Positions 35,546 through 53,415 of a stretch of DNA of 53,415 nucleotides are shown one piece after another. Below the pieces are notes generated by a model that worked only from the letters and a program-made list of their open reading frames with translations, was not told where the DNA came from and made no database searches. Origin of the DNA: a virus (taxonomy: Duplodnaviria; Caudoviricetes). Made by a program: the position numbers and the translations under genes. Within the stretch, counting starts at the first letter, position 1. Each line of letters starts with the position of its first letter. The stretch lies in the IMG/VR virus record IMGVR_UViG_3300031658_000010, positions 1 to 53,415 of that record; one strand, 5' to 3'.

Positions 35546-36327
35546 TATTAATTATTAAAAATATTCTTGGTATTATAACAGACCCAAAAAACACAAGGAT
35601 GTTTTTATTAGGTGGTATGGTGGTGCTTTTCTTTTTGCTTCTTAGACAATGCAATGAAACTGAAAATGCAAAAGGTGAAGTTGTTAGATTTCAAAATAAT
35701 CTAGTAGCTGCAAATGATACTATTAAAAATTATGTTAATATAAATGGCGAGTCAGTTGGGGAAATTAAAGGTTTGAGTTTATCATTAGAAGAATTGAAAG
35801 ATAGTTTGGAATATGAAAAAGGCAGGCCCCCCGTTACTATTATTAAATACAAAACTATAATAAAAGAAAAAATAGTGGAAGTACCAGTTATAACTAAAGA
35901 TACTATAACAGTTCAAGGTAATGCTAGTTTCAATTCAATATTGAGTTTTAGCTCTGATAGTAATTGGGCTAAAAGCTCAAGATCTATCAATGTTAAGTTG
36001 CCTTATAGTACAATAGATAGTTTAACCTTCGGTACTGCAACAATTGGACTAAAACAAAATATTTGGTTAGACGCTACACTGTCACAAGATGTAAAAACTA
36101 AAGAAATATTTATTAAATTAACTTCTGACTATCCAGGAACTATATTTAATAATACAGAAGGGATAATGATTGATAGAAAAAGCAAAGCGTTTAAAAGCTT
36201 ACAGATGCAAAACAGAAAACAATTTGGATTAGGTCTAAGTATGGGAATGGGAGTAACTGGTAACGGTACATTCGCACCTTATATTGGAATTGGTCTTTCG
36301 TGGAATCCAAAGCTTTTGCAGTGGTAA
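35542..36327 (+). CDS. Membrane-anchored protein, possibly spanin-like
   Basis: N-terminal TM/lipobox-like MFLLGGMVVLFFLLLRQC, coiled coil, C-terminal amphipathic beta hairpin FGLGLSMGMG...YIGIGLSW. Confidence 0.5.
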   Translation: MILIIKNILGIITDPKNTRMFLLGGMVVLFFLLLRQCNETENAKGEVVRFQNNLVAANDTIKNYVNINGESVGEIKGLSLSLEELKDSLEYEKGRPPVTIIKYKTIIKEKIVEVPVITKDTITVQGNASFNSILSFSSDSNWAKSSRSINVKLPYSTIDSLTFGTATIGLKQNIWLDATLSQDVKTKEIFIKLTSDYPGTIFNNTEGIMIDRKSKAFKSLQMQNRKQFGLGLSMGMGVTGNGTFAPYIGIGLSWNPKLLQW

Positions 36328-39251: not shown

Positions 39252-39608
39252 ATGAAAACCTTTAAAGACTATTTAACAGAATCACATGATGATGGTGTAG
39301 ATATCCAAAAACTACTAAATGAATCACATACTTTAACCGAGGAACAGGATGCAGCTATTGATATGGCAGTAGACAGAATTATGGAAGAGCATAAGAACGG
39401 GAAGGATTTAGAAACTGTAGTAGATGAAATTGTAAGCGAAGGTATATTGGGAAGTATATTTGGTGGACTTACTGGTTTTGCTTTAGGTAAAACTATAGGA
39501 AAGGCAATTGCTAAAGTTCTAGGTATCCAAAAGGGTGCTTTGTATGATTTAATGACTTCACGTCTTGTTGGTGCTGCGCTAGGTGCAGTTCTCGGTAAGA
39601 GAATATAA
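39252..39608 (+). CDS. Putative internal head protein with capsid-targeting-like N-terminus and glycine-zipper C-terminus
   Basis: MKTFKDYLTE resembles T4 IPIII MKTYQEFIAE; GILGSIFGGLTGFALG...GAALGAVLG. Confidence 0.55.
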   Translation: MKTFKDYLTESHDDGVDIQKLLNESHTLTEEQDAAIDMAVDRIMEEHKNGKDLETVVDEIVSEGILGSIFGGLTGFALGKTIGKAIAKVLGIQKGALYDLMTSRLVGAALGAVLGKRI

Positions 39609-39613
39609 ACAAT

Positions 39614-40273
39614 ATGATTAATATAGGAATTGACTTTTCACTTAATAGCCCAGGAGTATGTATTGAAACTGCTGATGGTAAATACCACTTTATAACTTTT
39701 TTTAATTATGGGAATCGTATATGGGATGAAGAGGGTAAAAAGATACCCAAATCATTTAGTGTACATAAAGAACTCATGGATGATTCTGCTATGCTAGGAT
39801 TTCCATATAATAGAGAGGTAACAAGCAAAGAGTTTTTACCCAGGGAGCGTCAGAAATTAGAAGATGCTGGTAATATTAGTTCATTAATGGTCAACATTTT
39901 TTCTACACTATTTGAAGGCGACGAGGTATCAGTTGCACTTGAAGGTTTCTCGTACGGATCCAAAGGGAATTCATTTATAGACATTATTCAATATAATACA
40001 TTTTTAAGAAAGGAACTAATAGAAAAGTATACAATTGAGAATCTATCTATATTTCAACCATCTCATGTAAAGAAGTTAGCTGGTAAAGGAAATGCAAACA
40101 AACATTATATGGCTAAAGCATTCCAAGATGATGTCCTAAACGATAAGAACTTAAGATCAACTAAACTTTGGAAATGGACTCAAGGTAAAGACTTTAGCAT
40201 TAAAATACCAAAACCTATAGACGATATCATTGATGCCTACTTTATACTTAAAGCATTAAAAGCAAATAACTAG
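39614..40273 (+). CDS. RuvC-like Holliday junction resolvase/nuclease
   Basis: IGIDFSL, VALEGFSYG, PSHVKKLAG.GNANK, DDIIDAY: RuvC acidic catalytic motifs. Confidence 0.8.
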   Translation: MINIGIDFSLNSPGVCIETADGKYHFITFFNYGNRIWDEEGKKIPKSFSVHKELMDDSAMLGFPYNREVTSKEFLPRERQKLEDAGNISSLMVNIFSTLFEGDEVSVALEGFSYGSKGNSFIDIIQYNTFLRKELIEKYTIENLSIFQPSHVKKLAGKGNANKHYMAKAFQDDVLNDKNLRSTKLWKWTQGKDFSIKIPKPIDDIIDAYFILKALKANN

Positions 40274-40308
40274 CAATTAGATACTATTCTTCAATTCAAT
40301 AGTTAAAA

Positions 40309-40337
40309 ATTATATTGCAACTAGTGGAGTTTGTTTC
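40309..40337 (-). promoter_or_regulatory. Putative antisense class-2 promoter GAAACAA-N16-TATAAT
   Basis: Reverse complement reads gaaacaa actccactagttgcaa tataat; it points into the 3' end of the RuvC-like gene. Confidence 0.5.
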
Positions 40338-40366
40338 AGCTTTACACTAATTAAATTTAAAATAAT

Positions 40367-40651
40367 ATGTTAAAACCTCTAGGGAATAGAATATTTTTAA
40401 AAAAGGACGAACAACCAGATAGAAAAGGTAGTATACTTTTAGTCAAACAAGACGGTATGTATGCTCCGCCATATTCAGGAATGATCATTGGTGTTGGTGA
40501 TGGTGTAGAAGATGCAGAATATCAAATTGGTATAAAGGTTCTTTTTCATGATTTAGCAGGTACTGAATTTAAATATGATGGCAATACTGTATTTAGTTTA
40601 CGAGAAAACGATATAACTGCAATAATAGATAAAAATATTCATGTAGTCTGA
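40367..40651 (+). CDS. groES: Co-chaperonin GroES (Cpn10)
   Basis: MLKPLGNRIFL...GSILL...GMIIGVGDG...KVLF...GTEFKYDG...LRENDITAI. Confidence 0.9.
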   Translation: MLKPLGNRIFLKKDEQPDRKGSILLVKQDGMYAPPYSGMIIGVGDGVEDAEYQIGIKVLFHDLAGTEFKYDGNTVFSLRENDITAIIDKNIHVV

Positions 40652-40678
40652 AACAAACTGACTTAGTGAATATATAAT
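40651..40678 (+). promoter_or_regulatory. Overlapping putative promoters upstream of the SSB: AAACAA-N16-TATAAT and AATATATAA (40669-40677)
   Basis: Both motifs are present about 150 nt upstream of ATG 40827. Confidence 0.55.
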
Positions 40679-40826
40679 AAACAAAGGAATCAATAATTAA
40701 ATGGTTACTTTTTAAACAGGCGATAACACGGCAAAGTAAATAGGCAAATTAAATAATAGTTTAGGCACAGAGCTTTGTTATCAATTATAAACAATTAATA
40801 ATAATAACAAAAAAAAGGCAATTAAC

Positions 40827-41753
40827 ATGGCAAACGAATTCGACATTTTTAATGTAAGTGTAAAAGATTTAGACACTGGTGAAAGACCTTCCACAGGAGG
40901 AAGCGATTTATACACACCTAAACCAGATCAAGGACAAGACGGTATCTACCGATCTTTAATTAGGTTTCTACCTAATGCAAAAAACCCAAGAAAACCATTC
41001 GAACGTAAATATGTCTACTGGCTAGAAGACAGAGAAGGAAACGGCTTTTATGCTGATTCCCCTTCAACAGTTGGAGAAAAATGTCCAGTACAGGATATGT
41101 TCTTTAAACTAAGAAACTCTGAATCTGCAGTAGATAAAAAGATGTCAGAAGGTTTAAAGCGTAGAGAAGTATTCTATGCATTGGTACAAATCGTAAAAGA
41201 TCCACAAAATAGAGACTTAGAAGGACAAGTTAAAATTATGAAATTCGGTTATAAAATCAAAACTAAAATTGATGAAGAACTGAATCCACAATTCGACGAG
41301 CCAACTCAAGTGTTTGATCCATTCGAAGGAAAAAACTTTGAATTAGTAATTTCTAAGAAGGGTGGTTTTCCAAATTATGACTCAAGTAAATTCCATGGAA
41401 ATAAATCTCCAATGACAATCGGCGGTGAACCGGTTACTAATGATGATGCAAGCCGTAAAGCAATTTTAGAATTGTTAGGTACAGCACCAGATTTAAATGG
41501 TTGGGGTTACAAGGCATGGGATGATACTGTTAGAGGAAAGGTAATGGGAGTATTATCTCAGTTCCATTCTCCAGGTGATTCAATACAAAACATCACAAGA
41601 TCAAAACCAGCACCGGTTAATACAAAGGTAACTGAAGCCGCTGCAACTAAAGTAACGACTGAAACAAAAACTGAAACTCAAGCTGCTCCAACATCGGGCG
41701 GTACTGAGAAAAAAGAAGATTTTGATGAATTCATTAATGGGTTAGATCTTTAA
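40827..41753 (+). CDS. Single-stranded DNA-binding protein (T4 gp32-like)
   Basis: LIRFLP, STVGEKCPV, GQVKIMKFGYKI, FDPFEGKNF, NYDSSKF; acidic C-terminal tail EDFDEFINGLDL. Confidence 0.9.
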   Translation: MANEFDIFNVSVKDLDTGERPSTGGSDLYTPKPDQGQDGIYRSLIRFLPNAKNPRKPFERKYVYWLEDREGNGFYADSPSTVGEKCPVQDMFFKLRNSESAVDKKMSEGLKRREVFYALVQIVKDPQNRDLEGQVKIMKFGYKIKTKIDEELNPQFDEPTQVFDPFEGKNFELVISKKGGFPNYDSSKFHGNKSPMTIGGEPVTNDDASRKAILELLGTAPDLNGWGYKAWDDTVRGKVMGVLSQFHSPGDSIQNITRSKPAPVNTKVTEAAATKVTTETKTETQAAPTSGGTEKKEDFDEFINGLDL

Positions 41754-41758
41754 TAAAT

Positions 41759-42835
41759 ATGGCAGCAGAAGTAATAATATCTTCTGAAATGAAAGCTCGG
41801 ATCATCGACAAGGTGGTCCGAGTTCTTCATAATAACCACTCCCATCCGGAGAAAAGAAGAATTTTAGAAAGTAAAGGAAGACTAAATATGGCATGCCCAT
41901 ATTGTGGAGATTCAACATCAACACCTAGGAAAAAACGAGGTAACTTATATTGGAACGATTTATACTTCCATTGTTATAACTGCTCCGCACATTCCTCTCT
42001 AGATGTTTTCTTAGCAGACCATCATGAAAACTTTGAAGGTGATGATAGGATTGATGTAATAAATTATATAAAGGAAAACCGAAAACATTTCTCATTAGGT
42101 GAAAGTTTAGATTTCCATCTATTTGATAAAATTAAATCTATAGCATTAACTTTTGATGAAGTAGCTTTAGGATTTAATGTATATCCAATTAATAGTTTAA
42201 CGTATCAGGCATATCCTTATTTGAAGAGTAGGTTACTCCATCATAAAACTGAAAGGTTTGCATTTGATCCACGACGTAGAGAACTATATGTTTTTAATTT
42301 AACACCAACTGGTAATATTGTAGGGTTTCAAACAAGAGCATTAGGTGCTGATAATGTTGGCCCTAAATATAAGACTTGGAACATCGAAAGGATATATGAT
42401 AGATTAAAAAGACCACTAGAAGTAGATGAAGAAGAGTTAGACAACTTAAATAAAATATCAATGTTATTCGGTATTTTAAATGTAGATATGTCTAGAGATT
42501 TTTCTATCTTTGAAGGTCCAATCGATGCAATGTTTATGAATAACTCAATCGGTTTAACTGGAGTTAAGAAGCAGATAATTGAATTTAACGAAATACCTAC
42601 AGCAAGATATTTCTTTGATAACGATATGGAGGGTAAAACTCGAATGATAGAGAAATTAAAAGGTGGTCAAACTGTATTTATGTGGGAAAAGTTTTTAAAG
42701 GACTTTGATATCCCAAAAAGAAAAGTAAAAGATTTAAATGATCTAGTGAAATATGAATTTGCTAATCGAACCGGTTGTTTAGGTGACCTAGATAAATATT
42801 TTACAAATAACTCATTAGATATTATTTTTATATAA
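41759..42835 (+). CDS. DNA primase (T4 gp61-like)
   Basis: Zn finger CPYCGDS...FHCYNC; GFQTR; TOPRIM EGPIDAMF, FDND, KDLND. Confidence 0.9.
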   Translation: MAAEVIISSEMKARIIDKVVRVLHNNHSHPEKRRILESKGRLNMACPYCGDSTSTPRKKRGNLYWNDLYFHCYNCSAHSSLDVFLADHHENFEGDDRIDVINYIKENRKHFSLGESLDFHLFDKIKSIALTFDEVALGFNVYPINSLTYQAYPYLKSRLLHHKTERFAFDPRRRELYVFNLTPTGNIVGFQTRALGADNVGPKYKTWNIERIYDRLKRPLEVDEEELDNLNKISMLFGILNVDMSRDFSIFEGPIDAMFMNNSIGLTGVKKQIIEFNEIPTARYFFDNDMEGKTRMIEKLKGGQTVFMWEKFLKDFDIPKRKVKDLNDLVKYEFANRTGCLGDLDKYFTNNSLDIIFI

Positions 42836-43053
42836 TGAGTATACAAAAATATAATAATTTCGTGAGCGAAGAACTAGATGATTTTTATAAAGATGCAGAA
42901 GAGGATGGTAAAAAACTTAGGTTATTTTCTAAATTTAGTAAATCAGTATTAGGAGAAGTTAAAACTAAGTTCTCAATACCTGAACCTAAAAAGAAGTTTC
43001 AACCCAAAGTAAAGAGCTACAAGAAGATTAATAATGATAAAGGTATATTCTAA
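42835..43053 (+). CDS. Small hypothetical protein with capsid-targeting-like N-terminus
   Basis: MSIQKYNNFVSEE; coupled to both neighbours. Confidence 0.5.
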   Translation: MSIQKYNNFVSEELDDFYKDAEEDGKKLRLFSKFSKSVLGEVKTKFSIPEPKKKFQPKVKSYKKINNDKGIF

Positions 43054-43502
43054 TGGAGTACAATGATACATCAACAGGTGAGGCTAATGAGGTTCTAGCA
43101 ACTAGATTAGCTACTGACCGATCTAACTGGAAAGAAAAGATAACTAACCTTGTTGGTTTGTTAAAAGAAATGAGCAACTTGGCTGAATGTCAAGTACTTA
43201 TGTTATCTTACAGGCAAATCTTGTTAGATAAAATTACAGATTTTAAAACGACTAAACATAAAAGGCAAGCAGCATATGATCGCTATTATAAAATTAAATA
43301 TCGGGAGTATTCATTAGAATATGATATTAAATTAACAAGCGGCGAAAAGGTTGCTTTCATCAAAGCTGATTTGAGTCATTTAAGAACTCAGATGGAAATG
43401 CTACAATCCCACATGGACTATTACCAAGAATGTATAAAGACTTGCGATAATCTAGCATTCGCTATTCGTAACAGAATAAACCTGGACGATAAAGAATATT
43501 AA
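43053..43502 (+). CDS. uvsY: Recombination mediator UvsY-like
   Basis: Helical 149 aa; FIKADL...DNLAFAIRNRI C-terminal motif; directly upstream of UvsW. Confidence 0.7.
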   Translation: MEYNDTSTGEANEVLATRLATDRSNWKEKITNLVGLLKEMSNLAECQVLMLSYRQILLDKITDFKTTKHKRQAAYDRYYKIKYREYSLEYDIKLTSGEKVAFIKADLSHLRTQMEMLQSHMDYYQECIKTCDNLAFAIRNRINLDDKEY

Positions 43503-43505
43503 TTA

Positions 43506-45011
43506 ATGGAACTATCCCTATCAGAAAATAAAAAGTTTTTGGTCATCGATGCATGTACTGAATTAGAGTACGAGCAGTTGAAGAGCAGTTTAACTAAAAA
43601 GATTGAAGGGTGGAGATTTCATCCTTTAGTTAAAAAGAAAGTATGGGACGGTAACGTCTCCTTTGTAAAAAGAAATAAAATACCAGCTGGTTTATGGAAA
43701 GAGATATTAGATATCTGTAAAGATTATGATTTCCAATGTTCTTTAAATGGTATCACTGATATTTTTGATACTGACATCAACGAAGAATCATTTAGGTTAT
43801 GGGTAACAAGTATTTTTGAAAAACACCCTAATTTCAAACCTAGAGAATATCAAATAGATGCAGCATTTAAAATATTAAAATATAGAAGGTGTTTAGCTGA
43901 GCTTGCAACATCTGCAGGTAAAACTCTAATATCCTTTATGGTAGTTGCATATATGATGGATAAGTTAGGAAAGAAAAAAATCTTAATGATTGTTCCTAAT
44001 GTAAATTTAGTATTACAAGCTACTGGTGATTTCGATGAATATAACAGGTGTGGCGTTCCATTAAAGACTCAGCAAGTATATGCAGGTGCAGAGATTAGAA
44101 AAAGTTCTAACTTAGTAATAGGTACATACCAATCGCTAGTTAAAAAAGATGAGGAATACTTTAGTCAATTTGATGCTGTGTTTGTCGATGAAACTCATAA
44201 AGCAAAAGCTGCATCTATTCAAAAGATAATGGATAAATGTTGGCACTGTGATTTTAGGTTTGGTTTAAGTGGAACAATACCTAAGAAAGGAACTGTTAAT
44301 AGACTAAGCTTAATGTCGGCAATGGGACCTTTGGTTACTCAAGTAAAGGCAAGCCAATTACAACAGCAAGGATTTATTGCTTCATGTAAAGTTATGCAGC
44401 TCCACATGGATTATGCAACTGATGCTCAGAAAGAATCATTCTCGTTTCTTTCAAAGAACCCACAAGATAGACAGAAATTATTTGGATTAGAACAAAACTT
44501 TATTAATCAAAGTGAAAAAAGATTAGATTTTGTTTGCCAAGTAATTAAAAAATCAACATCAAATTCATTAGTACTATTTCATAAAATAGCATACGGCGAA
44601 AAGGTGTATCAAAAACTAAGACAAATAACTGACAAGAAAGTTTACTATGTAGATGGTTCAGTTAATGTAGATATAAGAGAAGAGTTTAAAGCCAGGATGG
44701 AAAAAAACGATGATGTTATTATTGTAGCATCATATGGAACATTCTCAACCGGTATATCTATAAAAAATATACATAACATATTCTTCACTGAAAGTTTTAA
44801 ATCAGAAGTGATCATTAGACAAAGTATAGGTAGGGGATTAAGAAAACATGAATCAAAGGATGTAGTGAAAATCTATGACTTTATTGATGATTTTAGATAT
44901 AAAGCCGAGGAACATGACTGGGTTAATTACGTTTATAGACATGGTATTGCTAGGCGAACAATATATAAAGAAGAAAAGTTTCCGTTTGATGTACAAAACA
45001 TCAGATTCTAA
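43506..45011 (+). CDS. uvsW: SF2 DNA helicase UvsW
   Basis: WDG, PREYQ, ATSAGKT, DETH, GLSGT, ASYGTFSTGISI, QSIGRGLR. Confidence 0.92.
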   Translation: MELSLSENKKFLVIDACTELEYEQLKSSLTKKIEGWRFHPLVKKKVWDGNVSFVKRNKIPAGLWKEILDICKDYDFQCSLNGITDIFDTDINEESFRLWVTSIFEKHPNFKPREYQIDAAFKILKYRRCLAELATSAGKTLISFMVVAYMMDKLGKKKILMIVPNVNLVLQATGDFDEYNRCGVPLKTQQVYAGAEIRKSSNLVIGTYQSLVKKDEEYFSQFDAVFVDETHKAKAASIQKIMDKCWHCDFRFGLSGTIPKKGTVNRLSLMSAMGPLVTQVKASQLQQQGFIASCKVMQLHMDYATDAQKESFSFLSKNPQDRQKLFGLEQNFINQSEKRLDFVCQVIKKSTSNSLVLFHKIAYGEKVYQKLRQITDKKVYYVDGSVNVDIREEFKARMEKNDDVIIVASYGTFSTGISIKNIHNIFFTESFKSEVIIRQSIGRGLRKHESKDVVKIYDFIDDFRYKAEEHDWVNYVYRHGIARRTIYKEEKFPFDVQNIRF

Positions 45012-45038
45012 TATAGAATATCTTTTAAGTAAGACATG

Positions 45039-45047
45039 GATATATAA
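45039..45047 (+). promoter_or_regulatory. Putative late promoter variant GATATATAA
   Basis: Starts 28 nt upstream of ATG 45067. Confidence 0.55.
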
Positions 45048-45066
45048 AAAAAATAAAACAACTAAC

Positions 45067-46818
45067 ATGAAATCAGTCAAAAAGTTTTCTGCAATGTCTG
45101 CTAAGGATCAACCGATCACAGAATCTGCAAAAGTAAGCCAAGAAGCTGTCGAAGAATTGATCAAAAAGATTGGTTTTAACAGTATAGATGAATTAAAGAA
45201 AGAGAAAGATCTTCTTTCTAAACTAGAAGCACTATCCAAAAGCTTTGCTAATAAAGATGATATATCTGAAGAAGAGATCGAAGAAGATCGTACAGAAGAT
45301 ATTGAAGATGAAGTAAATGCAAAAGGTAAACCTAAATCTGCTGAAGGCGAAGGTGATGCTAAACAGGGCGATGAAGAAGTCGTAGCTGCTGAAGAGGTAG
45401 AAGAAGTAGAGGAAGATGCTACTGAAGAAGAAATAGTATCTGACGAAGAAGCTGTTCCTGCTGAAGAAGAAGTAGAAGATGAAACTGAAGTAGAAGTACC
45501 AGTCGCAGATGAAGAAGTTGAAACACCTAAAGCTACAAAAAGAATTATGGCTTTTGAAGATTTCATTAAAGAAAAAGAAGAAACTATTAATAAGAACGTT
45601 AATTATCGTGATGATAATGAAGAAGAAGAAGACTATGCTGTTCCTGTTGCTGCTTCTGCTGATCCCCTTTCAGAGTCCGATGAGTCAAAAGGAAAGGACG
45701 ATGAAAAAGATGGTGATGAGTTAGAAGACAAAGGAGATAAGAAAGTTGATTCTGAGGATGATAAAGAAAAAGCAGACCATTATAAAGGAGCTGTTAAATC
45801 TGATGATGCTCAAATCAAATCTTTAAAGAAAGATGCTAAGTTTGATAAAGAGGAAGAGGAAGATGCTGAAAAGAATGAATCTGCTATTATGTCTTTTTCT
45901 AATTTTGTAAATGAAGCCTATGACAAAGTTGTTTGGGGTGGAAATAAAGGTGATGATTCTGAGTCTGAAGAAGATGAAGAAGATTATGAAGATGATGATA
46001 AAACTGATGAAGGTTTTGATGAAGTAACACTTGGTGGAAATAAAGGTGATAAATCTAAAACCAAAAAAGGTGAAGAAGATTATGAAGATGAGGTTGATGA
46101 AGATCGCGCCGAGGATATCGAAGATGAAGTAAACGCAAAGGGTAAACCTAAAGCAGTTAAAGAAGCTAAACAACAAAGTAACTTATTAGATTGGTTTAAT
46201 GATTTAACTGATAAGGATCTAAAATCAAAAGGATCATTTTTGAAACTCGGTAAATCTGCTGGGTATGATAAAAAAGATTTAGAGACTATTATATCTGATT
46301 TTGAACAAGGTGATGAGAGTTATATTCAGTGGGCTAAAGACGTGCATGTTAAAGAAGGTGTTGCTGAAGTAATTGCTAAAGTTGAAAAAGCTGAAGTAAA
46401 AGATCAAGTAGCTGGAGCTGACGGTATTGCTATTCCAACAATTAAAGGTGATGGTTCAGAAACTGCAGCTGGTATTGCTGGTGATATAATGAATAAGGGT
46501 AAAGTTAAAAACTTATCTGCATTAGCTGGTAAATTAGTTACAACAGATCAAAAGGTTACTGAAGTAATTCCTGATGAGGCAAACGATGTATCTGAAGATG
46601 GCATTGAAATTCCATTAGTAAAAGAAGCTAAGATTAATGAGGAAGATATTACTTCTGATGATCAATTCAAAGAATACGCAACTGCAGTGTTGAAAAAAGC
46701 ATTCGGTGATGATTATGATGAAGCTAAAGCAACTGAAGTAATTGACGGTTTAATTTCTAAACATGATGGAGACTATGGTGCAATGGTTGGAGCTTTACAA
46801 TCTACTATGGGATCATAA
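45067..46818 (+). CDS. Highly acidic putative internal head/scaffold-like polyprotein (583 aa; start moved from 44875)
   Basis: ATG 45067 follows the promoter-like motif and avoids overlap with uvsW; E/D-rich; internal repeats; internal IMAFEDFIKE and IMSFSNFVNE motifs. Confidence 0.65.
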   Translation: MKSVKKFSAMSAKDQPITESAKVSQEAVEELIKKIGFNSIDELKKEKDLLSKLEALSKSFANKDDISEEEIEEDRTEDIEDEVNAKGKPKSAEGEGDAKQGDEEVVAAEEVEEVEEDATEEEIVSDEEAVPAEEEVEDETEVEVPVADEEVETPKATKRIMAFEDFIKEKEETINKNVNYRDDNEEEEDYAVPVAASADPLSESDESKGKDDEKDGDELEDKGDKKVDSEDDKEKADHYKGAVKSDDAQIKSLKKDAKFDKEEEEDAEKNESAIMSFSNFVNEAYDKVVWGGNKGDDSESEEDEEDYEDDDKTDEGFDEVTLGGNKGDKSKTKKGEEDYEDEVDEDRAEDIEDEVNAKGKPKAVKEAKQQSNLLDWFNDLTDKDLKSKGSFLKLGKSAGYDKKDLETIISDFEQGDESYIQWAKDVHVKEGVAEVIAKVEKAEVKDQVAGADGIAIPTIKGDGSETAAGIAGDIMNKGKVKNLSALAGKLVTTDQKVTEVIPDEANDVSEDGIEIPLVKEAKINEEDITSDDQFKEYATAVLKKAFGDDYDEAKATEVIDGLISKHDGDYGAMVGALQSTMGS

Positions 46819-46836: not shown

Positions 46837-47292
46837 ATGAATAATATAAAAAAGTTTGCAGAATTTGTAAATGAATCAATTAATGAAGCCGAATTACCAT
46901 CTTGGGTTCAGAGCGGTCCTTACAACACTCTTTCTACCGTTTTACGCGATGGGGATGGTTATGATGATAATGGGAAAGAATTAACACTGGCTGATGTTAA
47001 TAAAAATTATAAACCAGCTTTAAAATATCTAGGAGTAAGATCTGTTGCTGATATGGTAATGGTTGCATCTACTAATGATGATGCAAAATTTGACCCTAAA
47101 GATAAAAAAGCTGACTTACTTGGAAATGATAATAGTATCTCCGGGCAACGTGCAACAGGAATGTGGCCAGCCCCATATACAGCAGCATATAAAGGAATGC
47201 TAGGAGATGTAAAAGTGATTATTGTTGCTGATGAAGGTGGTGAAGGTAGATATGCATATGCTGCAGGTGATTCTAAAGGAAACCTTAAATAA
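46837..47292 (+). CDS. Putative internal head protein
   Basis: MNNIKKFAEFVNESINEA N-terminus. Confidence 0.6.
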   Translation: MNNIKKFAEFVNESINEAELPSWVQSGPYNTLSTVLRDGDGYDDNGKELTLADVNKNYKPALKYLGVRSVADMVMVASTNDDAKFDPKDKKADLLGNDNSISGQRATGMWPAPYTAAYKGMLGDVKVIIVADEGGEGRYAYAAGDSKGNLK

Positions 47293-47295
47293 TTT

Positions 47296-47334
47296 CTAAA
47301 GTAAAATATAAACTAAAGTAAAATATAAACTAAA
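47296..47334 (+). repeat. 17-bp tandem duplication ctaaagtaaaatataaa x2 (+ctaaa)
   Basis: Exact copies at 47296-47312 and 47313-47329. Confidence 0.9.
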
Positions 47335-48605
47335 TGAAACATATAAAACTGTTTGAACAATGGCTGACTGACAAAAGTCAGCCATTGTTGTTAGAAGGTG
47401 GAGCTGCTGGTCATATGAAGCATCCATTTGATAATAAGAACTTAACATTTAGAGACTTTAAAAATCTCATTAATTCTGGTTTAAGTGGTGAATTGAATTT
47501 CGAGGAAGCACCTACAGAAAAAACAGATGGCCAAAACTTATTTGCTACAATACAAGACGGTGAAGTTAAATTCGCAAGAAATCAAGGTGAAATGAGATCA
47601 CCTTTAGATTTACAAGGAATTAATCAAAAGTTTGACGGTCATGCTAGTAAATTAGTGCAGGATACTTTTCAGTTTGCCGCCGCTGATTTAGCAAACTTAT
47701 TAATAAAGCTTCCAGTTAAAACACAGGATGAAGTATTTGATAATGGTAAGAACTTCATGAATATGGAATTAATATACTCAAAGAATCCTAATGTTATCCA
47801 TTATGATATTGATGTTATACAATTTCATGGTATTAAAAAGACAGACGGTGATGGTAAAATTATTGGAGATGATCCATCTGCTGCTAAAAAAATAGCCGGA
47901 GTTCTTAAGAAGCTTAAATCGGATATCGGTAAAACTTTTACGATAATCCCTCCAAAGGTTCTAGCATTAAGAAAGGATATTAACTTTGATGAAAATGTAG
48001 CTAAATTTATTAAAAAGGTTGAAGACTTGAAGAATGTATATAATTTATCAGACGACGATGAGGTTTCAAAATATCACGAAATGTGGTGGAGAGATCAAAT
48101 CGAAGCAAACTTCCCTGAACTATCACAACAGCAAAAAGAAGGTTTATTATTAAGATGGGCATATGCTGATAAAAAGACACTTAATCTAAGATCTCTTGAT
48201 AAAGATCTAGGTAAAGAAAAGGCAGCAATCATTAAGAAGTTTGATAAAGAAGATGTTAAAAAGAAACAAAAAGAAAACATTAGACCGTTTGAAGATCTGT
48301 TCTTAGAGTTAGGGAGTGTTATATTAAAGAATGCAAGTAACTTCGTAGCAGCTAATCCTACTAAAGAAATGCAAAGACTTCACAAGCAAATCAAAGCAGC
48401 AGCAGAAGGTATTAAAAAGAGTGGTAGTTTAGACCAGATTGAAAAGGTAACTAAAGAACTTGAAAGATTAGATAGGATTGGTGGAGTAGAATCAATCATA
48501 CCAACAGAAGGTCTTGTATTTAAGTACAAAGGTACTACTTATAAATTAACTGGAACTTTTGCTGCAATTAATCAGTTGATGGGTATTATGAGGTACGGTA
48601 GATAG
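47334..48605 (+). CDS. RNA-ligase-fold (covalent) nucleotidyltransferase-like protein with capsid-targeting-like leader
   Basis: TEKTDG (motif I), NMELI (III), QFHG (IIIa), EGLVFK (IV), YKLTG (V); leader MKHIKLFEQWL...LLLE-GGAAGHMKHP. Confidence 0.65.
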   Translation: MKHIKLFEQWLTDKSQPLLLEGGAAGHMKHPFDNKNLTFRDFKNLINSGLSGELNFEEAPTEKTDGQNLFATIQDGEVKFARNQGEMRSPLDLQGINQKFDGHASKLVQDTFQFAAADLANLLIKLPVKTQDEVFDNGKNFMNMELIYSKNPNVIHYDIDVIQFHGIKKTDGDGKIIGDDPSAAKKIAGVLKKLKSDIGKTFTIIPPKVLALRKDINFDENVAKFIKKVEDLKNVYNLSDDDEVSKYHEMWWRDQIEANFPELSQQQKEGLLLRWAYADKKTLNLRSLDKDLGKEKAAIIKKFDKEDVKKKQKENIRPFEDLFLELGSVILKNASNFVAANPTKEMQRLHKQIKAAAEGIKKSGSLDQIEKVTKELERLDRIGGVESIIPTEGLVFKYKGTTYKLTGTFAAINQLMGIMRYGR

Positions 48606-48705
48606 TTTTAAGATTGTTAATAACTTTCCAAAACAAAACAAGAGTTTATAGTACGAAACTAAACAAAATTGATTATATTTATAATATAATAAAAATACAA
48701 AAGAT

Positions 48706-49065
48706 ATGAAACATATGCATAGCTACGATTCTCTAAATGAATCAAACGAATTGGAAACAATCAAAAAACAAGTTTTGGATTTTGCTGAAAAGAAAGGTAA
48801 ATCTAAATGGGGAGACTTGCAGAAATTTATTTTAACTTTAAAAGGTTTAGATCCAGATGACAGAGATAATCGTGGTCAGTTTTCATCTTATTTTTCAGGC
48901 GGTTCTTCATGGAGAAAAAACACAATGAAACAAGGTGATCATGGTAGAAATGCAAATTCTGCTGGATTATTAATGAGACCGACTAAAAAAGATCCTAGGT
49001 ACTTAGAAAAAGATGGTAAAGATTATACTGTTAAAGTATGGGATGGTAAATCTAAATTAGACTAA
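48706..49065 (+). CDS. Small basic putative internal protein (possible winged-helix-like)
   Basis: MKHMHSYDSLNES leader. Confidence 0.55.
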   Translation: MKHMHSYDSLNESNELETIKKQVLDFAEKKGKSKWGDLQKFILTLKGLDPDDRDNRGQFSSYFSGGSSWRKNTMKQGDHGRNANSAGLLMRPTKKDPRYLEKDGKDYTVKVWDGKSKLD

Positions 49066-49066
49066 T

Positions 49067-49393
49067 ATGAAAAACTTTAATGAATTTATAACTGAGGCTA
49101 TTAAATACAAAGATCGAAGTGGTAAAGGCTTTAGCATCAAGGGAATTGATTTTGTTTATACTGAACAGGGTGGTAAATTTTATGGAACATCTTTATATGA
49201 TGTTGCTAAAACTGCAAATGTTAGTAAAAAATCTAAAATTAGTTTAGATGCAACTAATGAATTATTAAAGTCTATTGGTATCAAAGATGAAGTACCAAGT
49301 AGATACGAAACGGATGAACTTGATAAGATTTGTAAACAACTAAAGAAAAAGGGTATAGTATGTGACTACGGTGACCACATGGACATATCATAA
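49067..49393 (+). CDS. Small putative internal head protein
   Basis: MKNFNEFITEA is a close match to the T4 internal-protein leader. Confidence 0.6.
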   Translation: MKNFNEFITEAIKYKDRSGKGFSIKGIDFVYTEQGGKFYGTSLYDVAKTANVSKKSKISLDATNELLKSIGIKDEVPSRYETDELDKICKQLKKKGIVCDYGDHMDIS

Positions 49394-49433
49394 TGCTAAT
49401 GTAATAATATATTAAAATCACGTTAAGTGTATT

Positions 49434-49462
49434 AAAGGTGAGTTAAATGTCTCACCTTTTTT
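49434..49462 (+). terminator. Rho-independent terminator
   Basis: aaaggtgag-ttaaatgt-ctcaccttt stem-loop running into a T tract. Confidence 0.8.
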
Positions 49463-49468
49463 GTTCTT

Positions 49469-49496
49469 AAACAATCAAATATATAAAAGGTATAAC
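49469..49496 (+). promoter_or_regulatory. Nested putative promoters: AAACAA-N16-TATAAC containing AATATATAA (49478-49486)
   Basis: Immediately after the terminator and upstream of ATG 49509. Confidence 0.55.
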
Positions 49497-49508
49497 TAAA
49501 AACTAATA

Positions 49509-52352
49509 ATGAAAGAGTTAACAAACATATATAAAGAAACCGGGCAGCAATTCATAGATGATCTATTTAAAGATTACTTATTGGTGACTGAGAAATTATC
49601 AGGATCGTCATTCTCGTTTGAGAGACATGGCGATGAACTACGATTTTTTAAAGGTAGCAATAAGCAACCAATCAATTTAGTGGACAGGACACTAATGATG
49701 TATTATGAACAAGCAATTCAATACATTCTAAATAAAACCGAAGGTCATATAAAAGACTTGCCAGAATATTGGAGATTCTGTTTCCAATATTTTGTTAACA
49801 ACCAGCCTGGTGCAATCAAGTATGATAACTTACCAACTAATAATTTATTACTTACACATATACAAGTAAGAAACCCAAAGGGAAAGATTGCCAAAGTAAT
49901 CGAAGATCCTAGGGTACTTAGAGATTGGTCCTCTGCTTTTGACGTAACTCCACTTATTCCAATTTTTAGTGGTTATTTAAAAGAAGCACAAAAGAAAAAG
50001 ATTAGAGAATTCCTTGAAACACCAAAGGAAGATCAGTTAGAGGTATTTGGAACTAGTTCATTTGCTAAATATCTAATTGATGCATTAAATCCAACGATCA
50101 AACAAACAACGCTACAAAACGATTTAGACAAACCGATAGATTCTATAATCTTTAAGTTTTTTAAACAAGGCACTAATCAAATATTTACTGCAAAAATGAT
50201 TGATCCTTATACACAAGGATTAATGAAAGATAAAGAACCTATTGATTTAAGAAGAGCTCCTGCTGATATTAATGAAATCTTATTATTAGATATCTTAGCA
50301 TTCGTCGAAGAGCGAGGATTGCGTGGCGGTGAACTATTGACATCAGTACCTGAAGAAAGATACTTAGAATTAATGTCAAATCTGTTTAATGATTATATAG
50401 CCAAGAGAGGTGTTGATCTTCAAAAATTAGATATTGAAAAGGCAAAGTTTGCAAAAGGCCCAGAGTTTAATTTAAATTTAGACTTAATTAAAAATAATAG
50501 AACCAGGGAAATATTACAAAAATCTGAATCTTTACAAAACTTATATAAAATAATGGTTGGATCTTTAAGGAAGAAAAGAAATCCTGAGAGAGTAGGTTCG
50601 ATCATGACAAAATCAGTAGTAGAAGATTTTAACAAGATGGTTGATAAAATCACAGATGCAATTAATAAAGAAACTGATGGTGAATTCAAAACATTCGGGG
50701 ATTACTTAAATACTAAAGTTACAGAGACTATAAACTACAAAGATTTAGAGGAACTTGTAGTAGAAGAAAAAGTTCTTAATTATAATAACTTTATTCATTT
50801 AGGTAAGATTGATATTAATGAAGACAATATAAATGAAGCAAAGAAAATTACAAAGGGTGATGTTGAGAAGTTTTGGATAAAGGCATATAAGCAATATACT
50901 ACCAAGATGAAAATGATAACTGATTTTGTTAAAGTTTCAAATAGAACTGGCGATCATGGTGAAGTACTTAGGGGTAACTTTGGTCCTAATGATGGGACAG
51001 CAGAAGCTGCTATCGAAAAATTTCTTATATCAAATGTAGTAGGTTTAAAGAAAAGATCGTTTAAGATCGAAGAATTACCAGTTGGTTATCTTTCTAGTGA
51101 TTATGCTGCATATAAAATAATTATACAAAAAGCAACTGATAATAAACTAAGACAATCTTACGGCATTAGTGATTTCTTTATTATAACAAATCGTTATAAG
51201 ATCTCTAAGAAAACCGGGGAAGCTGCTATTGTAGGTAAGAAAGATTTAACACCAGCTAAATTAGGTATGGGTAATACTAACTATAAAAATTGGGCAAGTT
51301 TACTTTCACCTGTAGAAAAATTCTTGAATGATTCACACTATCCAGAAAATTATAAAAACTTTATGCTCGAGGCGGCTAAAGAAATTAGTAGTAATACTAA
51401 AAATGCTGGTAAATTTGAAGATTTTACTGAATATGCAAACGCACCAGTTCACACTATAACATACCCTATTACAAAATCTTTATTTGATGGTATTGATCAA
51501 TTATCAATTCAGAATATCAGAAATGACTACGGTGAAGTTTTAGGTGGCTTTATGCTACTTAACATACTAAGAAACCCTGGTGATGGTGTAAGCTATCCAC
51601 CAGGTGAAAGTGAACCTTTAGTAGATTTCTATTTTGATACATACAGTATATCATCAAAGGGTGGTAAAAAAGGCGGTACACCAACTGGCGATACTATCAT
51701 ACAAAGAATCTATAAAATGGCTAATGACAAAAAACGAGTACCAGGCCCATTGAGTTTTGAAACTGCAGGTGAGCAGGATTTTTATAATAATGTAATAGAT
51801 ACTTGGGTTAATCCTATGAAGTTAGCACGAAGTAAGATTTATGGCAGGATTATGTCTCTATGCAGTGTAAACCTTAATGATCATAACAAATCTGCATACT
51901 GGTATCTTTTGAAAGAAGCAGAGCTACAGCCTAGCAATGCAACACAAGATGCAGTTGAAGAATTCTTAGACAATTTATATACTGATAAAGCTGAATTTAC
52001 TAAGTTCTTACGTACCTTTTGGGAAAAATCAACTTATGAATGGAATGAGGCAAAATTAAAAACAAACGTTGATGGTTTTGAAAAGTTCAAAGGCAACCAC
52101 AAATTAGGTGTTGTGTTTTATCCATTAATGGTTGAGTTAACTCATGCTCTTAACCAAAAGTATACTAAAGAATTAACAAAGTATTCACAGATAGTTACAG
52201 ATGTCAAGCAATTGTATTTAGATGTAAAGACTAAGAATGGTAATTTTGAATTTAAAACAGTACCCTTTAGCACAGCAGATTTTGTGTTTGAGCAAAAAGC
52301 TAGTATACCAATGCCATTTAATGCTAATATGGGAATTGCAATACAAAAGTAA
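49509..52352 (+). CDS. Multidomain protein: variant ligase-fold NTase N-terminus plus PD-(D/E)XK-like C-terminal domain
   Basis: TEKLSG, DSIIFK, AKMID (variant ligase motifs); linker FKTFGDYL...INEDNINEA; YGEVLG...EPLVDF...ISSK nuclease-like motif. Confidence 0.55.
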   Translation: MKELTNIYKETGQQFIDDLFKDYLLVTEKLSGSSFSFERHGDELRFFKGSNKQPINLVDRTLMMYYEQAIQYILNKTEGHIKDLPEYWRFCFQYFVNNQPGAIKYDNLPTNNLLLTHIQVRNPKGKIAKVIEDPRVLRDWSSAFDVTPLIPIFSGYLKEAQKKKIREFLETPKEDQLEVFGTSSFAKYLIDALNPTIKQTTLQNDLDKPIDSIIFKFFKQGTNQIFTAKMIDPYTQGLMKDKEPIDLRRAPADINEILLLDILAFVEERGLRGGELLTSVPEERYLELMSNLFNDYIAKRGVDLQKLDIEKAKFAKGPEFNLNLDLIKNNRTREILQKSESLQNLYKIMVGSLRKKRNPERVGSIMTKSVVEDFNKMVDKITDAINKETDGEFKTFGDYLNTKVTETINYKDLEELVVEEKVLNYNNFIHLGKIDINEDNINEAKKITKGDVEKFWIKAYKQYTTKMKMITDFVKVSNRTGDHGEVLRGNFGPNDGTAEAAIEKFLISNVVGLKKRSFKIEELPVGYLSSDYAAYKIIIQKATDNKLRQSYGISDFFIITNRYKISKKTGEAAIVGKKDLTPAKLGMGNTNYKNWASLLSPVEKFLNDSHYPENYKNFMLEAAKEISSNTKNAGKFEDFTEYANAPVHTITYPITKSLFDGIDQLSIQNIRNDYGEVLGGFMLLNILRNPGDGVSYPPGESEPLVDFYFDTYSISSKGGKKGGTPTGDTIIQRIYKMANDKKRVPGPLSFETAGEQDFYNNVIDTWVNPMKLARSKIYGRIMSLCSVNLNDHNKSAYWYLLKEAELQPSNATQDAVEEFLDNLYTDKAEFTKFLRTFWEKSTYEWNEAKLKTNVDGFEKFKGNHKLGVVFYPLMVELTHALNQKYTKELTKYSQIVTDVKQLYLDVKTKNGNFEFKTVPFSTADFVFEQKASIPMPFNANMGIAIQK

Positions 52353-52367
52353 ATATATAGATTATAA

Positions 52368-53415
52368 ATGGACAACTTAAAAGACATAAACAATTTCTTA
52401 ACAGAAAAGAAAGTAACAGTTAAAAGACGGTATACTGAATCTCACCCTGCAAAAAATGTATCAACATCTGCAAGAATAAGATCTAGTATAATAGAAGCTA
52501 TAGCTGATGGTCATATTACTGAAGACGAAATGGCTAAAATATTAACAGAGCTTAAAGCTCATAAGAGATGGTTAAATAGAAACAAAACTTTGTTTAACAT
52601 AAGCGAAGATCAAGAAGGGGTAAAAACATTTTCATTATCACCATACGGACAAAGAGTTATGAATGCAACAAAGACAACTATCATCAATGAAGCTTTATCA
52701 GTTCCTCATAAAGAACAAGGTAAAAAACCAGTAAACATGTTTGTTGGTAGATTTCAACCTTTTACATTAGGTCATGTTAAGGTATTTGAAAAAATGCATA
52801 AAGAAAACGGTTTGCCTGTTGTGGTTTATATGGTGAGAGGTAGAAAGCCTGATCCAGAGAAAAGACCATTTGATGAAGATACACAACAAGCAATGTTTGC
52901 TAAAATGAAAAAGCAATATCCATTTTTAGAAGCAAGTTTCGTAGTTCCTAATGGAGCAATTGATACAATGTTTGCAGCAGCAAGACCAGCATATGAACCA
53001 ATGATGTGGGGATTTGGTACTGATAGAAAAAAAGATTATGGTAATATGATTGATAAGCAAGCATACCGAGATCAACTTGGAGTTCATCCAGATTTTAAAG
53101 GTTTTGAAATTCCTAGAACAGGTGAAAACATCTCAGCATCTAAAGTAAGAAATGCTCTTAAGATAGATGATGAAAAAACATTCAAACAACTAACACCGAA
53201 AAGTATACACAGTTTTTATAAAGCTTTGCAAAATACTCTAAGTCCAATAAAAGAAAATAACAATATTATGAAAAATTTAAAATCAATTAATGAATTCTGT
53301 ATAAACGAATCAGTAATTAATGAAAACGACGCTAAGACAATAGTTAAAGCGTTTATGAAAGCTTATAATAAGGGAGACGAAGTTACTACCGATGATTGGA
53401 ACCAATTCATATATG
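52368..53415 (+). CDS. HUP-fold nucleotidyltransferase (NMNAT/cytidylyltransferase-like), 3'-truncated; absent from the ORF track
   Basis: Manual translation: MDNLKDINNFLTE...IINEA...VGRFQPFTLGH...RPF...GTDR...ISASKVR; open to the window end; preceded by AATATATAG (52352-52360). Confidence 0.8.
   Translation, partial: MDNLKDINNFLTEKKVTVKRRYTESHPAKNVSTSARIRSSIIEAIADGHITEDEMAKILTELKAHKRWLNRNKTLFNISEDQEGVKTFSLSPYGQRVMNATKTTIINEALSVPHKEQGKKPVNMFVGRFQPFTLGHVKVFEKMHKENGLPVVVYMVRGRKPDPEKRPFDEDTQQAMFAKMKKQYPFLEASFVVPNGAIDTMFAAARPAYEPMMWGFGTDRKKDYGNMIDKQAYRDQLGVHPDFKGFEIPRTGENISASKVRNALKIDDEKTFKQLTPKSIHSFYKALQNTLSPIKENNNIMKNLKSINEFCINESVINENDAKTIVKAFMKAYNKGDEVTTDDWNQFIY

Follow-up and report, generated by a model that had tools for sequence, protein, structure and literature searches.

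A conserved module of two predicted RNA-ligase-fold proteins and a HUP nucleotidyltransferase in large T4-like marine myophages

Introduction

Three neighbouring genes at the end of the IMG/VR virus record IMGVR_UViG_3300031658_000010 (the complete record of 53,415 bases, hereafter the window) belong together as a conserved functional module in large T4-like marine myophages. All three lie on the plus strand: open reading frame (ORF) 1 (47334-48605, 423 aa) encodes a putative RNA-ligase-fold covalent nucleotidyltransferase of an undescribed family, ORF2 (49509-52352, 947 aa) consists of a predicted ligase-fold N-half (hereafter ORF2-N), a disordered linker and an accessory C-half, and ORF3 (52368-53414, 349 aa, 3' end cut off where the gene runs off the contig) encodes a leader-like N-terminus, an N-region of about 100 aa, a HUP nucleotidyltransferase (NTase) and the start of a further module. 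The folds themselves are known, but the family is undescribed and so is the pairing, which is very widespread. RNA ligases are central to the escape of phages from tRNA-cutting defences and are workhorse reagents, and the three genes point to an undescribed kit for RNA-end repair or modification. We consider it somewhat better than an even chance that the module serves RNA end joining or repair, and we infer what the NTase does, which chemistry takes place and that RNA is the substrate from the evidence presented below.

Linkage of the three genes and their fusion partners

For the comparison of gene order 16 related viral loci were retrieved through ORF3, and the order ORF1-like gene, ORF2-N-bearing gene and NTase is kept in all 16. 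The same ORF2 C-half as in the window is found in seven of these loci and a different C-half in six, and in the remaining three the NTase is inserted inside ORF2, an arrangement seen in 4 of 120 ORF2 relatives. The 462-kb phage LR756500.1 (31-47% identity) encodes an ORF1-like protein followed by a 653-aa fusion of ORF2-N and the NTase, and its three-part locus is flanked by a similar helicase upstream and by DNA polymerase B and RNR downstream. In the Microcystis phage Mel-JY01 the NTase and an ORF1-like domain are fused in a protein of 639 aa that is annotated as 'cytidylyltransferase like protein'.

The ORF1 family comprises at least 1844 representative clusters (50% identity) at E ≤ 1e-3. 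Among the best 150 of these 1844 representatives an ORF3-like NTase was located in the same polypeptide in 109 (N-terminal in 107, C-terminal in two) and none was detected in 41; the linker between NTase and ORF1-like domain has a median length of 218 aa, measures no more than 3-8 aa in some proteins and spans about 0 to 1396 aa overall. The first-pass annotation, made from the sequence of the window, had taken the three genes to be one uncharacterised unit and had made this depend on the presence of the folds and on co-occurrence of the genes in other genomes; the folds were recovered and the genes do co-occur, in conserved order as well as in natural fusions.

To survey further partner domains, 87 long relatives were scanned with Pfam (38 chosen for their spread in length and, following the order of the list, 49 of the other 81 with 700 aa or more). 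CTP_transf_like was detected in 43 of the 87 proteins, followed by DUF5661 (six) and the ROS_MUCR zinc-finger (five), both of which recur in the long fusions of NTase and ORF1-like domain, Zeta_toxin/AAA_33 P-loop kinases (five), heads of CCA-adding enzymes or poly(A) polymerases (four), HD (two), 2H phosphoesterase (one) and ART (one). The CCA-adding head of one relative (P0269) matches the PDB entry 1miv at 2e-29; the PDB search with a kinase-bearing relative (P0283) gave no match, and its kinase could be a polynucleotide kinase or NadR-like. Kinase, 2H, HD and CCA-adding enzymes make up an RNA end-healing set, and the combination of ligase, kinase and 2H follows the logic of Trl1. These fusion partners therefore favour RNA end joining or repair. 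LR756500.1 also encodes Tpt1/KptA.

No HUP-ligase fusion is described in the portions consulted of the phage RNA-repair literature, including PMC9503650, PMC7824862 and PMC5512222, and Burroughs and Aravind (2016) may hold such a description. The nearest described systems in these sources are RlaP-RNA ligase pairs, in which an RNA ligase occurs with a second nucleotidyltransferase, and phage polyvalent proteins, which are long multi-domain proteins of conflict modules (PMC7824862, PMC5512222, both in part). The ORF1 family shares with them the second nucleotidyltransferase and the long multi-domain phage proteins, and differs, as far as these parts of the sources go, in that its constant partner is of the HUP rather than the Pol-beta fold and that fusions to MuF or portal proteins are missing.

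Most of the best-scoring ORF1 relatives are thus fused to a HUP nucleotidyltransferase, a pairing without a described role in RNA repair. The module could define a new RNA ligase family as well as a new reaction for NMNAT-like enzymes, and it provides a functional lead for the genes annotated as 'cytidylyltransferase' in many marine and cyanobacterial myophages.

ORF1, a predicted ligase fold with a helical insert

The structure model of ORF1 has a mean predicted local distance difference test (pLDDT) score of 88.1 and a predicted template modelling score of 0.84, and it was matched to ligases by both Foldseek and the all-against-representatives tool VIA. The Foldseek list consists of ligases and capping enzymes with T4 Rnl1 as the best match (E 4.4e-3). 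In VIA, for which the stated background Z is 7-8, the top 12 rows are all ligases, led by the Naegleria RNA ligase (5cot; Z 9.1, 187 residues aligned, root-mean-square deviation 4.0 Å) and including TbREL1 (1xdn, 8.2), Trl1 (9r3w, 8.2), 6n0t (8.1-8.2), T4 Rnl2 (2hvq, 7.7) and Rnl1 (7.2). The alignments of ORF1 with ligases span residues 24 to 417 approximately, across the helical insert described below, with only about 190 residues aligned.

The ligase motifs that had been read from the sequence lie at the places quoted (KTDG at 63-66, EGLV at 392-395, and LLLE ending at residue 21 followed by GGAAGHMKHP). Motif I, EKTDGQN (residues 62-68; 47517-47537), contains the putative nucleophile Lys63. 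Among 39 diverse relatives E62, K63, D65, G66, R82, E145, E392, G393, K404, T406 and G407 are invariant, and the motif I residues E62-K63-T-D65-G66 are likewise invariant in further sets of 38 and 49 sequences. Motifs IV and V, EGLVFKYKGTTYKLTG (residues 392-407; 48507-48554), coincide with model strands 393-398 and 401-405. E145, E392-G393-L-V-F-K397 and K404 show no or almost no variation and are placed on predicted strands, and the labels of motifs III, IV and V were assigned to them by order and pattern. The glycines and histidines of the preceding GGAxGHxxHP segment (G22, G23, G26, H27 and H30) are invariant in two further sets, the segment itself being disordered in the model.

According to DSSP of the model an all-helical insert of 165 residues (residues 218-382; 47985-48479) lies between the strands of motif IIIa and motif IV and thereby parts the strands bearing motifs I-IIIa from those bearing EGLVFK and K404. 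The Naegleria ligase Rnl5 and the ligase domain of fungal Trl1 are the best fold matches of ORF1 (5cot; 9r3w and 6n0t). As in Trl1, a P-loop kinase occurs in the same chain in some ORF1 relatives, and in one relative a 2H phosphoesterase does. In contrast to Rnl5 and Trl1, ORF1 has the helical insert between motifs IIIa and IV and the invariant GGAxGHxxHP ahead of the fold; in contrast to Trl1, the commonest fusion partner of the family is the HUP NTase and the ligase stands at the C-terminal end, the reverse of the Trl1 order. By its model, ORF1 is the founding member, within this analysis, of an undescribed, very widespread clade of the RNA-ligase fold; the architecture of this family of at least 1844 clusters is unusually split, and neither Pfam nor PHROGs nor NCBIfam recognises it. 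Most likely, as predicted from the model and its motifs, ORF1 would form a covalent lysyl-AMP and join strands.

ORF2, a putative variant Rnl2-like ligase with an exchangeable C-half

The model of ORF2 (pLDDT 75.2) comprises two folded halves with a disordered linker between them. The motifs read earlier were located at the places given (KLSG at 29-32, DSIIFK at 211-216), and the proposed ligase fold of the N-half was recovered as matches to Rnl2 in both structure searches. ORF2-N (residues 1-395; 49509-50693) is modelled as an Rnl2-like ligase fold with a helical C-domain and carries the fixed variant motifs KLSG, FCFQ, (D/E)SI(I/V)FK and AK. Its match to T4 Rnl2 has an E-value of 8.7e-5 in Foldseek (2hvq), and in VIA it reaches Z 10.5 with 1s68 (187 residues aligned, 3.8 Å), Z 10.4 with 2hvq over model residues 1-320 and Z 9.2 with 1xdn.

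In 39 relatives K29, G32, R60, Q93, H117 and K229 are each conserved in all 39 sequences; in the motif IV columns, position 211 is D in 31 and E in eight, S212 is conserved in 39 and K216 in 38. In ORF1 and ORF2-N alike, chance would not account for this conservation of the motif residues. Like T4 Rnl2 and trypanosome REL1, ORF2-N has an adenylyltransferase fold followed by an all-helical C-domain and a lysine in an EKxxG motif with about 180 residues to a (D/E)xxxxK motif, whereas at the sequence level no match exists between them. The canonical Rnl2 pattern used for comparison consists of the motif I Lys with the residues after it, the motif III Glu, EG..K in motif IV and KxK in motif V. ORF2-N departs from this pattern in the S/A at position 31 (third residue of motif I), in Q93 at the place of the motif III Glu (placed by eye), in S212 for the motif IV Gly and in a lone Lys in motif V, and, unlike Rnl2, it is joined to an accessory half of 500 aa or to the HUP NTase. 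Judged by these columns, ORF2-N is a strongly conserved fixed variant and not a decaying copy. The earlier suggestion that the variant copy acts as a regulatory partner found no support: the lysine and the other motif residues are invariant and the NTase is fused to it in relatives, which fits an enzyme better.

A BLASTP comparison of ORF1 with ORF2-N gave no match, and hhalign of the two families was not significant (E 0.14), aligning TEKtDGQNL with TEKLSGSSF as well as the YD..H segments. The paralogy of ORF1 and ORF2-N is therefore unproven.

The linker (residues 395-447; 50691-50849; pLDDT below 50) contains INEA at residue 441, and it is at this linker that the NTase is inserted or another C-half is joined in relatives (comparisons with P0205 and P0234). 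The C-half (residues 448-947; 50850-52352) is accordingly a swappable accessory module, in which residues E676, D706, S715 and K717 are invariant. The structure searches gave leads only for this half (Atlas scores at most 0.90). Residues 433-573 gave weak VIA leads (Z 4.6-5.9) to the Pol-beta-type nucleotidyltransferases cGLR, TUT1, GLD-2, Trf4 and CdnC and to SpoT, and residues 574-926 a weak lead (Z 4.8) to I-Ssp6803I, which has a PD-(D/E)xK nuclease fold. If these leads are real, the locus holds a fourth nucleotidyltransferase-type domain and a nuclease.

ORF3, a HUP nucleotidyltransferase

The HUP fold proposed for ORF3 was borne out by PF01467 (37.9 bits against a cut-off of 21, E 2.5e-9) and by TIGR00125 (32.3 against 27.7), and the motifs GRFQPFTLGH (127-136), GTDR (217-220) and ISASKVR (255-261) were found where they had been quoted. 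The NTase domain covers residues 107-299 (52686-53264; local hidden Markov model 4.1e-50). In 19 sequences G127, F129, P131, H136, S256 and R261 are invariant, the TLGH lying at 133-136. The PHROG matches (phrog_395 and phrog_3041) are both named 'cytidyltransferase', and the full-length homologs of ORF3 measure 440-522 aa. From these matches ORF3 is a cytidylyltransferase-like HUP nucleotidyltransferase with NMNAT-like motifs. Of the three proteins it is the only one to reach a curated family threshold, and it does so at the superfamily level. A complex prediction for ORF1 (residues 17-423) with the ORF3 NTase (residues 100-300) gave a score of 0.00 and a mark of 0.32, which is no verdict either way.

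The motifs raise the alternative of a NAD-centred module, in which ORF3 would make NAD+ from NMN and the ligase folds would take their AMP from NAD+, like bacterial LigA, or NAD-type RNA caps would be built by the pair, so that the pathway would keep running when host defences deplete NAD+. Archaeal NMNAT, NadM and NadR share with ORF3 the matches to PF01467 and TIGR00125 as well as GRFQPF.(H/T)xGH and ISxxxxR; the motif forms GRFQPF.xGH and IS..K.R, the nearest PDB sequences (archaeal NMNAT 1f9a and NadM 2qjo) and the nearest NCBIfam models, which are NMNAT families, all speak for this alternative. The ART partner (one of the 87 proteins) and the P-loop kinase adjoining the NTase handle NAD or resemble NadR, an enzyme composed of a HIGH nucleotidyltransferase and a P-loop kinase (PMC9503650, in part), and LR756500.1 has NadV. 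However, the PDB matches have E-values of 0.057-0.26 and none of the NMNAT equivalog models of NCBIfam reaches its cut-off: NF002243 scored 26 bits against 127, TIGR00482 22.1 against 112, TIGR01527 21.8 against 181 and NF003791 20.9 against 409. ORF3 thus stays far under every equivalog cut-off and, unlike NMNAT, NadM and NadR, is tied to ligase folds instead of Nudix. In addition, at a distance of about 10 kb from NadV, LR756500.1 has another CTP_transf_like gene that scores better, and another related record (G001) has a second copy too, which means that the ligase-linked NTase is not the sole NMNAT candidate there. NAD synthesis gives no place to the CCA-adding, 2H and HD partners. Both NadV and Tpt1/KptA were found only in the complete LR756500.1, with none in the four closer records, which are fragments. 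With the models at no more than 26 bits against cut-offs of at least 112, and with a second HUP gene in relatives, a generic NMNAT for NAD salvage, as proposed earlier, is not established, and we regard the NAD-centred module as unlikely.

In LR756500.1 (W01) the genes for Tpt1/KptA (81933-82445), the NadV-type NAPRTase (45016-45591) and the second CTP_transf_like protein (35594-35998) all lie far from the three-gene locus.

Putative function in RNA end repair

For RNA end joining or repair, the proposed mechanism is that the ligase-fold domains would be adenylylated on their lysines and would then join or modify broken RNA ends, such as those of tRNA or mRNA cut by host nucleases. HUP enzymes move a nucleoside monophosphate onto a phosphate, and this would allow the NTase to produce a dinucleotide donor or to adenylylate the 5'-phosphate of an RNA; the NTase would belong to the same pathway and act on a phosphate-bearing substrate, supplying either the nucleotide donor or the adenylylated end. 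From the functions that had been offered in the first-pass annotation, RNA repair is thus the one favoured by the fusion partners, while for protein AMPylation and nucleotide signalling nothing was found.

Several observations weigh against a role in RNA end repair. The VIA Z-scores of 9-10 for ORF1 and ORF2-N exceed the tool background only moderately, and the fold call therefore rests on the uniform match lists together with the conserved motifs. No ligase family was matched by either protein in Pfam (E ≤ 0.1), PHROGs (0.01) or NCBIfam (0.05), nor was any ligase matched in PDB sequence and profile searches with ORF1 and ORF2. ORF2-N is without the canonical Asp/His of motif I and probably without the Glu of motif III. 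RNA-healing partners are rare (12 domain matches in 87 proteins) and the long linkers are mostly unannotated, and to our knowledge the HUP nucleotidyltransferases have no role in RNA repair. Neither kinase nor phosphoesterase genes were seen in the window itself, and tRNA genes were found neither in the window nor in six loci. Finally, the genes for SSB, primase and a UvsW-like helicase adjoin the ligase genes, so that a role in DNA metabolism is conceivable.

Under such a DNA-directed function the module would seal or process DNA ends in replication, recombination or repair together with these three neighbours, which the module genes directly follow. The flanks of the locus in LR756500.1, with the same helicase upstream and DNA polymerase B and RNR downstream, the DNA ligases further down the fold lists and the possible PD-(D/E)xK nuclease in the ORF2 C-half would all agree with it. 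Yet DNA ligases and capping enzymes carry an OB domain after the nucleotidyltransferase domain, and this domain is absent after motif V in the models, where ORF1 has one helix and ORF2-N only helices. For both models the RNA ligases (Rnl2, REL1, Rnl5, Trl1, Rnl1 and Rnl3) rank ahead of DNA ligases and capping enzymes, RNA-end enzymes serve as the fusion partners, and ORF1 and ORF2 bear the promoter-like element of the structural genes (see below), which the replication genes are without. A DNA-directed function is accordingly regarded as quite improbable.

Slightly less credence still is given to a chemistry outside polynucleotides, in which lysyl-AMP and HUP enzymes would serve protein AMPylation or the synthesis of dinucleoside polyphosphates or other nucleotide signals. 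Such chemistry is possible in principle, T4 RNA ligase being able to make ApnN; classical RNA repair leaves the HUP partner unexplained, and ORF2 433-573 gave the weak leads to Pol-beta and alarmone-synthetase-like folds. Against this, nothing was found that points specifically that way, the CCA-adding enzyme with its RNA-binding domain and the 2H phosphoesterase point to RNA ends, and the helical domains resemble the C-domain arrangement of RNA ligases (2hvq aligned over residues 1-320).

Leader sequences, promoter-like elements and possible virion delivery

All three proteins had been described as carrying cargo-like motifs. This applies to ORF1, which has a leader resembling the T4 capsid-targeting sequence (CTS), and approximately to ORF3 (DINNFLTE); ORF2 lacks such a motif at its N-terminus and has INEA in its linker only. 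The ORF1 leader (residues 1-21; 47334-47396) contains the heptad FEQWLTD and then LLLE directly before the invariant GGAAGHMKHP, and residues 1-25 are disordered in the model. The T4 CTS is MKTYQEFIAE (PMC8442874, in part), in which residues 4 and 7 matter most for targeting and residues 8 and 10 for processing, and an Asp at the last heptad position permits targeting but blocks cutting (PMC9026906, in part). The ORF1 leader is like the gp21-cut CTS of the T4 internal proteins and Alt in its succession aromatic-x-x-aromatic-aliphatic-x-acid, as in residues 4, 7, 8 and 10 of MKTYQEFIAE, followed by an [LIV]xE site. The T4 internal proteins are small and basic, whereas the cargo here would be enzymes of 400-950 aa, one of them (ORF2) leaderless.

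In 5 of the 46 ORFs in the window, ORF1 among them and all at 39-50 kb, a strict heptad ([FYW]xx[FYW][ILVMC]x[ED]) begins no later than residue 12, compared with a mean of 0.16 and a maximum of three in 1000 shuffles. Of 117 close ORF1 homologs that have a leader, all retain [LIVM]xE directly before GGAAGH and 114 retain the strict heptad, while the rest of the leader varies; both features are also kept in the distant homologs of LR756500.1 and of a further locus (L016). Among distant representatives the relaxed heptad is enriched (52 of 141 against a shuffle mean of 6.6). The motif [ILV]NE[SA] occurs eight times in the 4499 aa encoded at or beyond 39 kb (shuffle mean 0.43, with eight reached in none of 1000 shuffles) and twice in 12,668 aa of structural proteins, and its sites fall in leaders and where modules meet (in the ORF2 linker and on either side of the ORF3 NTase). 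An S77 prohead protease was detected in three of five related records, the two without it being fragments that are 27-31% complete.

Other findings argue against delivery in the virion. The heptad of the window's own ORF1 ends in Asp, and in the distant ORF1 representatives the strict heptad is not enriched (3 of 141, shuffle mean 0.7). In 28 of 129 representatives GG is preceded by M, C or A, so that LLxE may simply be part of the ORF1 domain. The N-terminus of ORF2 is already part of the predicted ligase fold and without a leader, and the leader-like N-terminus of ORF3 fails the strict heptad. The ligase genes adjoin replication genes instead of lying in a head module, and the window holds no head genes. 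On balance it is plausible that ORF1-type proteins are packaged in the virion, although we lean against it.

More doubtful is the fuller possibility that a pre-made RNA-repair kit is carried inside the capsid, processed and injected with the DNA, with the HUP enzyme adenylylating RNA 5'-phosphates. In that case the ORF1-type ligases would be made late, together with the HUP NTase and accessory enzymes of end healing, as leader-bearing proteins or long polyproteins, and a CTS-like N-terminal helix would target them to the prohead core, where the S77 protease would cut at [ILV]xE and [ILV]NE[SA] and expose the invariant GGAxGHxxHP end of the ligase. Injected with the DNA, the kit would counter host anticodon nucleases and other RNA-cutting defences before phage gene expression; the HUP enzyme would place an adenylyl group on RNA 5'-phosphates (the NMNAT reaction on a polynucleotide) and ORF2-N would seal the ends. 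If true, this would possibly be the first case of RNA-repair enzymes carried in a capsid.

The matches to Peptidase_S77 in three related loci (L021, at G001:C1:18245-18595, L022 and L019) belong to open frames of 582-635 aa. A prohead protease by itself would be much shorter, which suggests a fusion of the S77 protease of these relatives to other modules, perhaps of the scaffold.

A promoter-like ATATA(T)AA(A) is located at -45 to -6 of 17 of the 46 ORFs, namely 13 of the structural block, the ORF at 39252, an acidic protein upstream of the module, ORF1 and ORF2, and in that interval of none of the eight genes from 39614 to 43506. This shared upstream element, AATATATAAA, precedes for example the ORFs that start at 13014, 27800, 39252, 45067 and 49509, and 11 of the 18 plus-strand copies of ATATATA fall in these upstream intervals. 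The copy in front of ORF2, ATATATAAA (49479-49487, plus strand), lies about 30 nt upstream of the gene, and the promoter-like element is kept upstream of ORF2 in seven of nine relatives. AATATATAAA may be the late promoter of the phage group. The late promoter of T4, TATAAATA, was also searched for and was dropped as a candidate, being depleted in the window (five matches against 13 expected, none upstream of a gene).

The ORF at 39252-39608 (plus strand, 118 aa) begins with MKTFKDYLTE, the closest match to the T4 CTS in the window, and also has the promoter-like element and an LNES motif; from these features it is a candidate internal head protein.

Genomic context

On the plus strand of the window, genes for tail fibres and a myovirus baseplate occupy the part up to about 35 kb, and further on lie the genes for SSB (40827), primase (41759) and the UvsW-like helicase (43506). 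The very acidic low-complexity protein (45067-46818, plus strand) lies directly upstream of the module region and directly precedes ORF1 in relatives, and the promoter-like element stands in front of it. Two leader-like heptads inside the protein, FEDFIKE and FSNFVNE, each follow right after a Met, as if leader-bearing genes once separate had fused. The listed start of this ORF at 44875 falls inside the helicase gene, and 45067 is the likelier start.

Between the acidic protein and ORF1 there is a small plus-strand ORF of 151 aa (46837-47292) with the leader FAEFVNE and two [ILV]NE[SA] motifs, followed by a tandem 17-nt repeat of two copies of CTAAAGTAAAATATAAA (47296-47329, plus strand), a perfect duplication that lies immediately before the start of ORF1 and in which each copy contains the promoter-like ATATAAA. 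Both the repeat and the 151-aa ORF are missing at this place in relatives. Two further small plus-strand ORFs of 119 and 108 aa, the second of which begins with MKNFNEFITE, lie between ORF1 and ORF2 (48706-49393) and vary among relatives.

Downstream of ORF3 relatives (L004, 11323-17862) encode a DUF3008 protein, two uncharacterised proteins and collagen-like fibre proteins, and the start of the window (3-1271) is likewise occupied by a collagen-like tail-fibre gene. With such fibre genes both at the start of the window and downstream of ORF3 in relatives, the two ends of the contig may be near each other in the genome.

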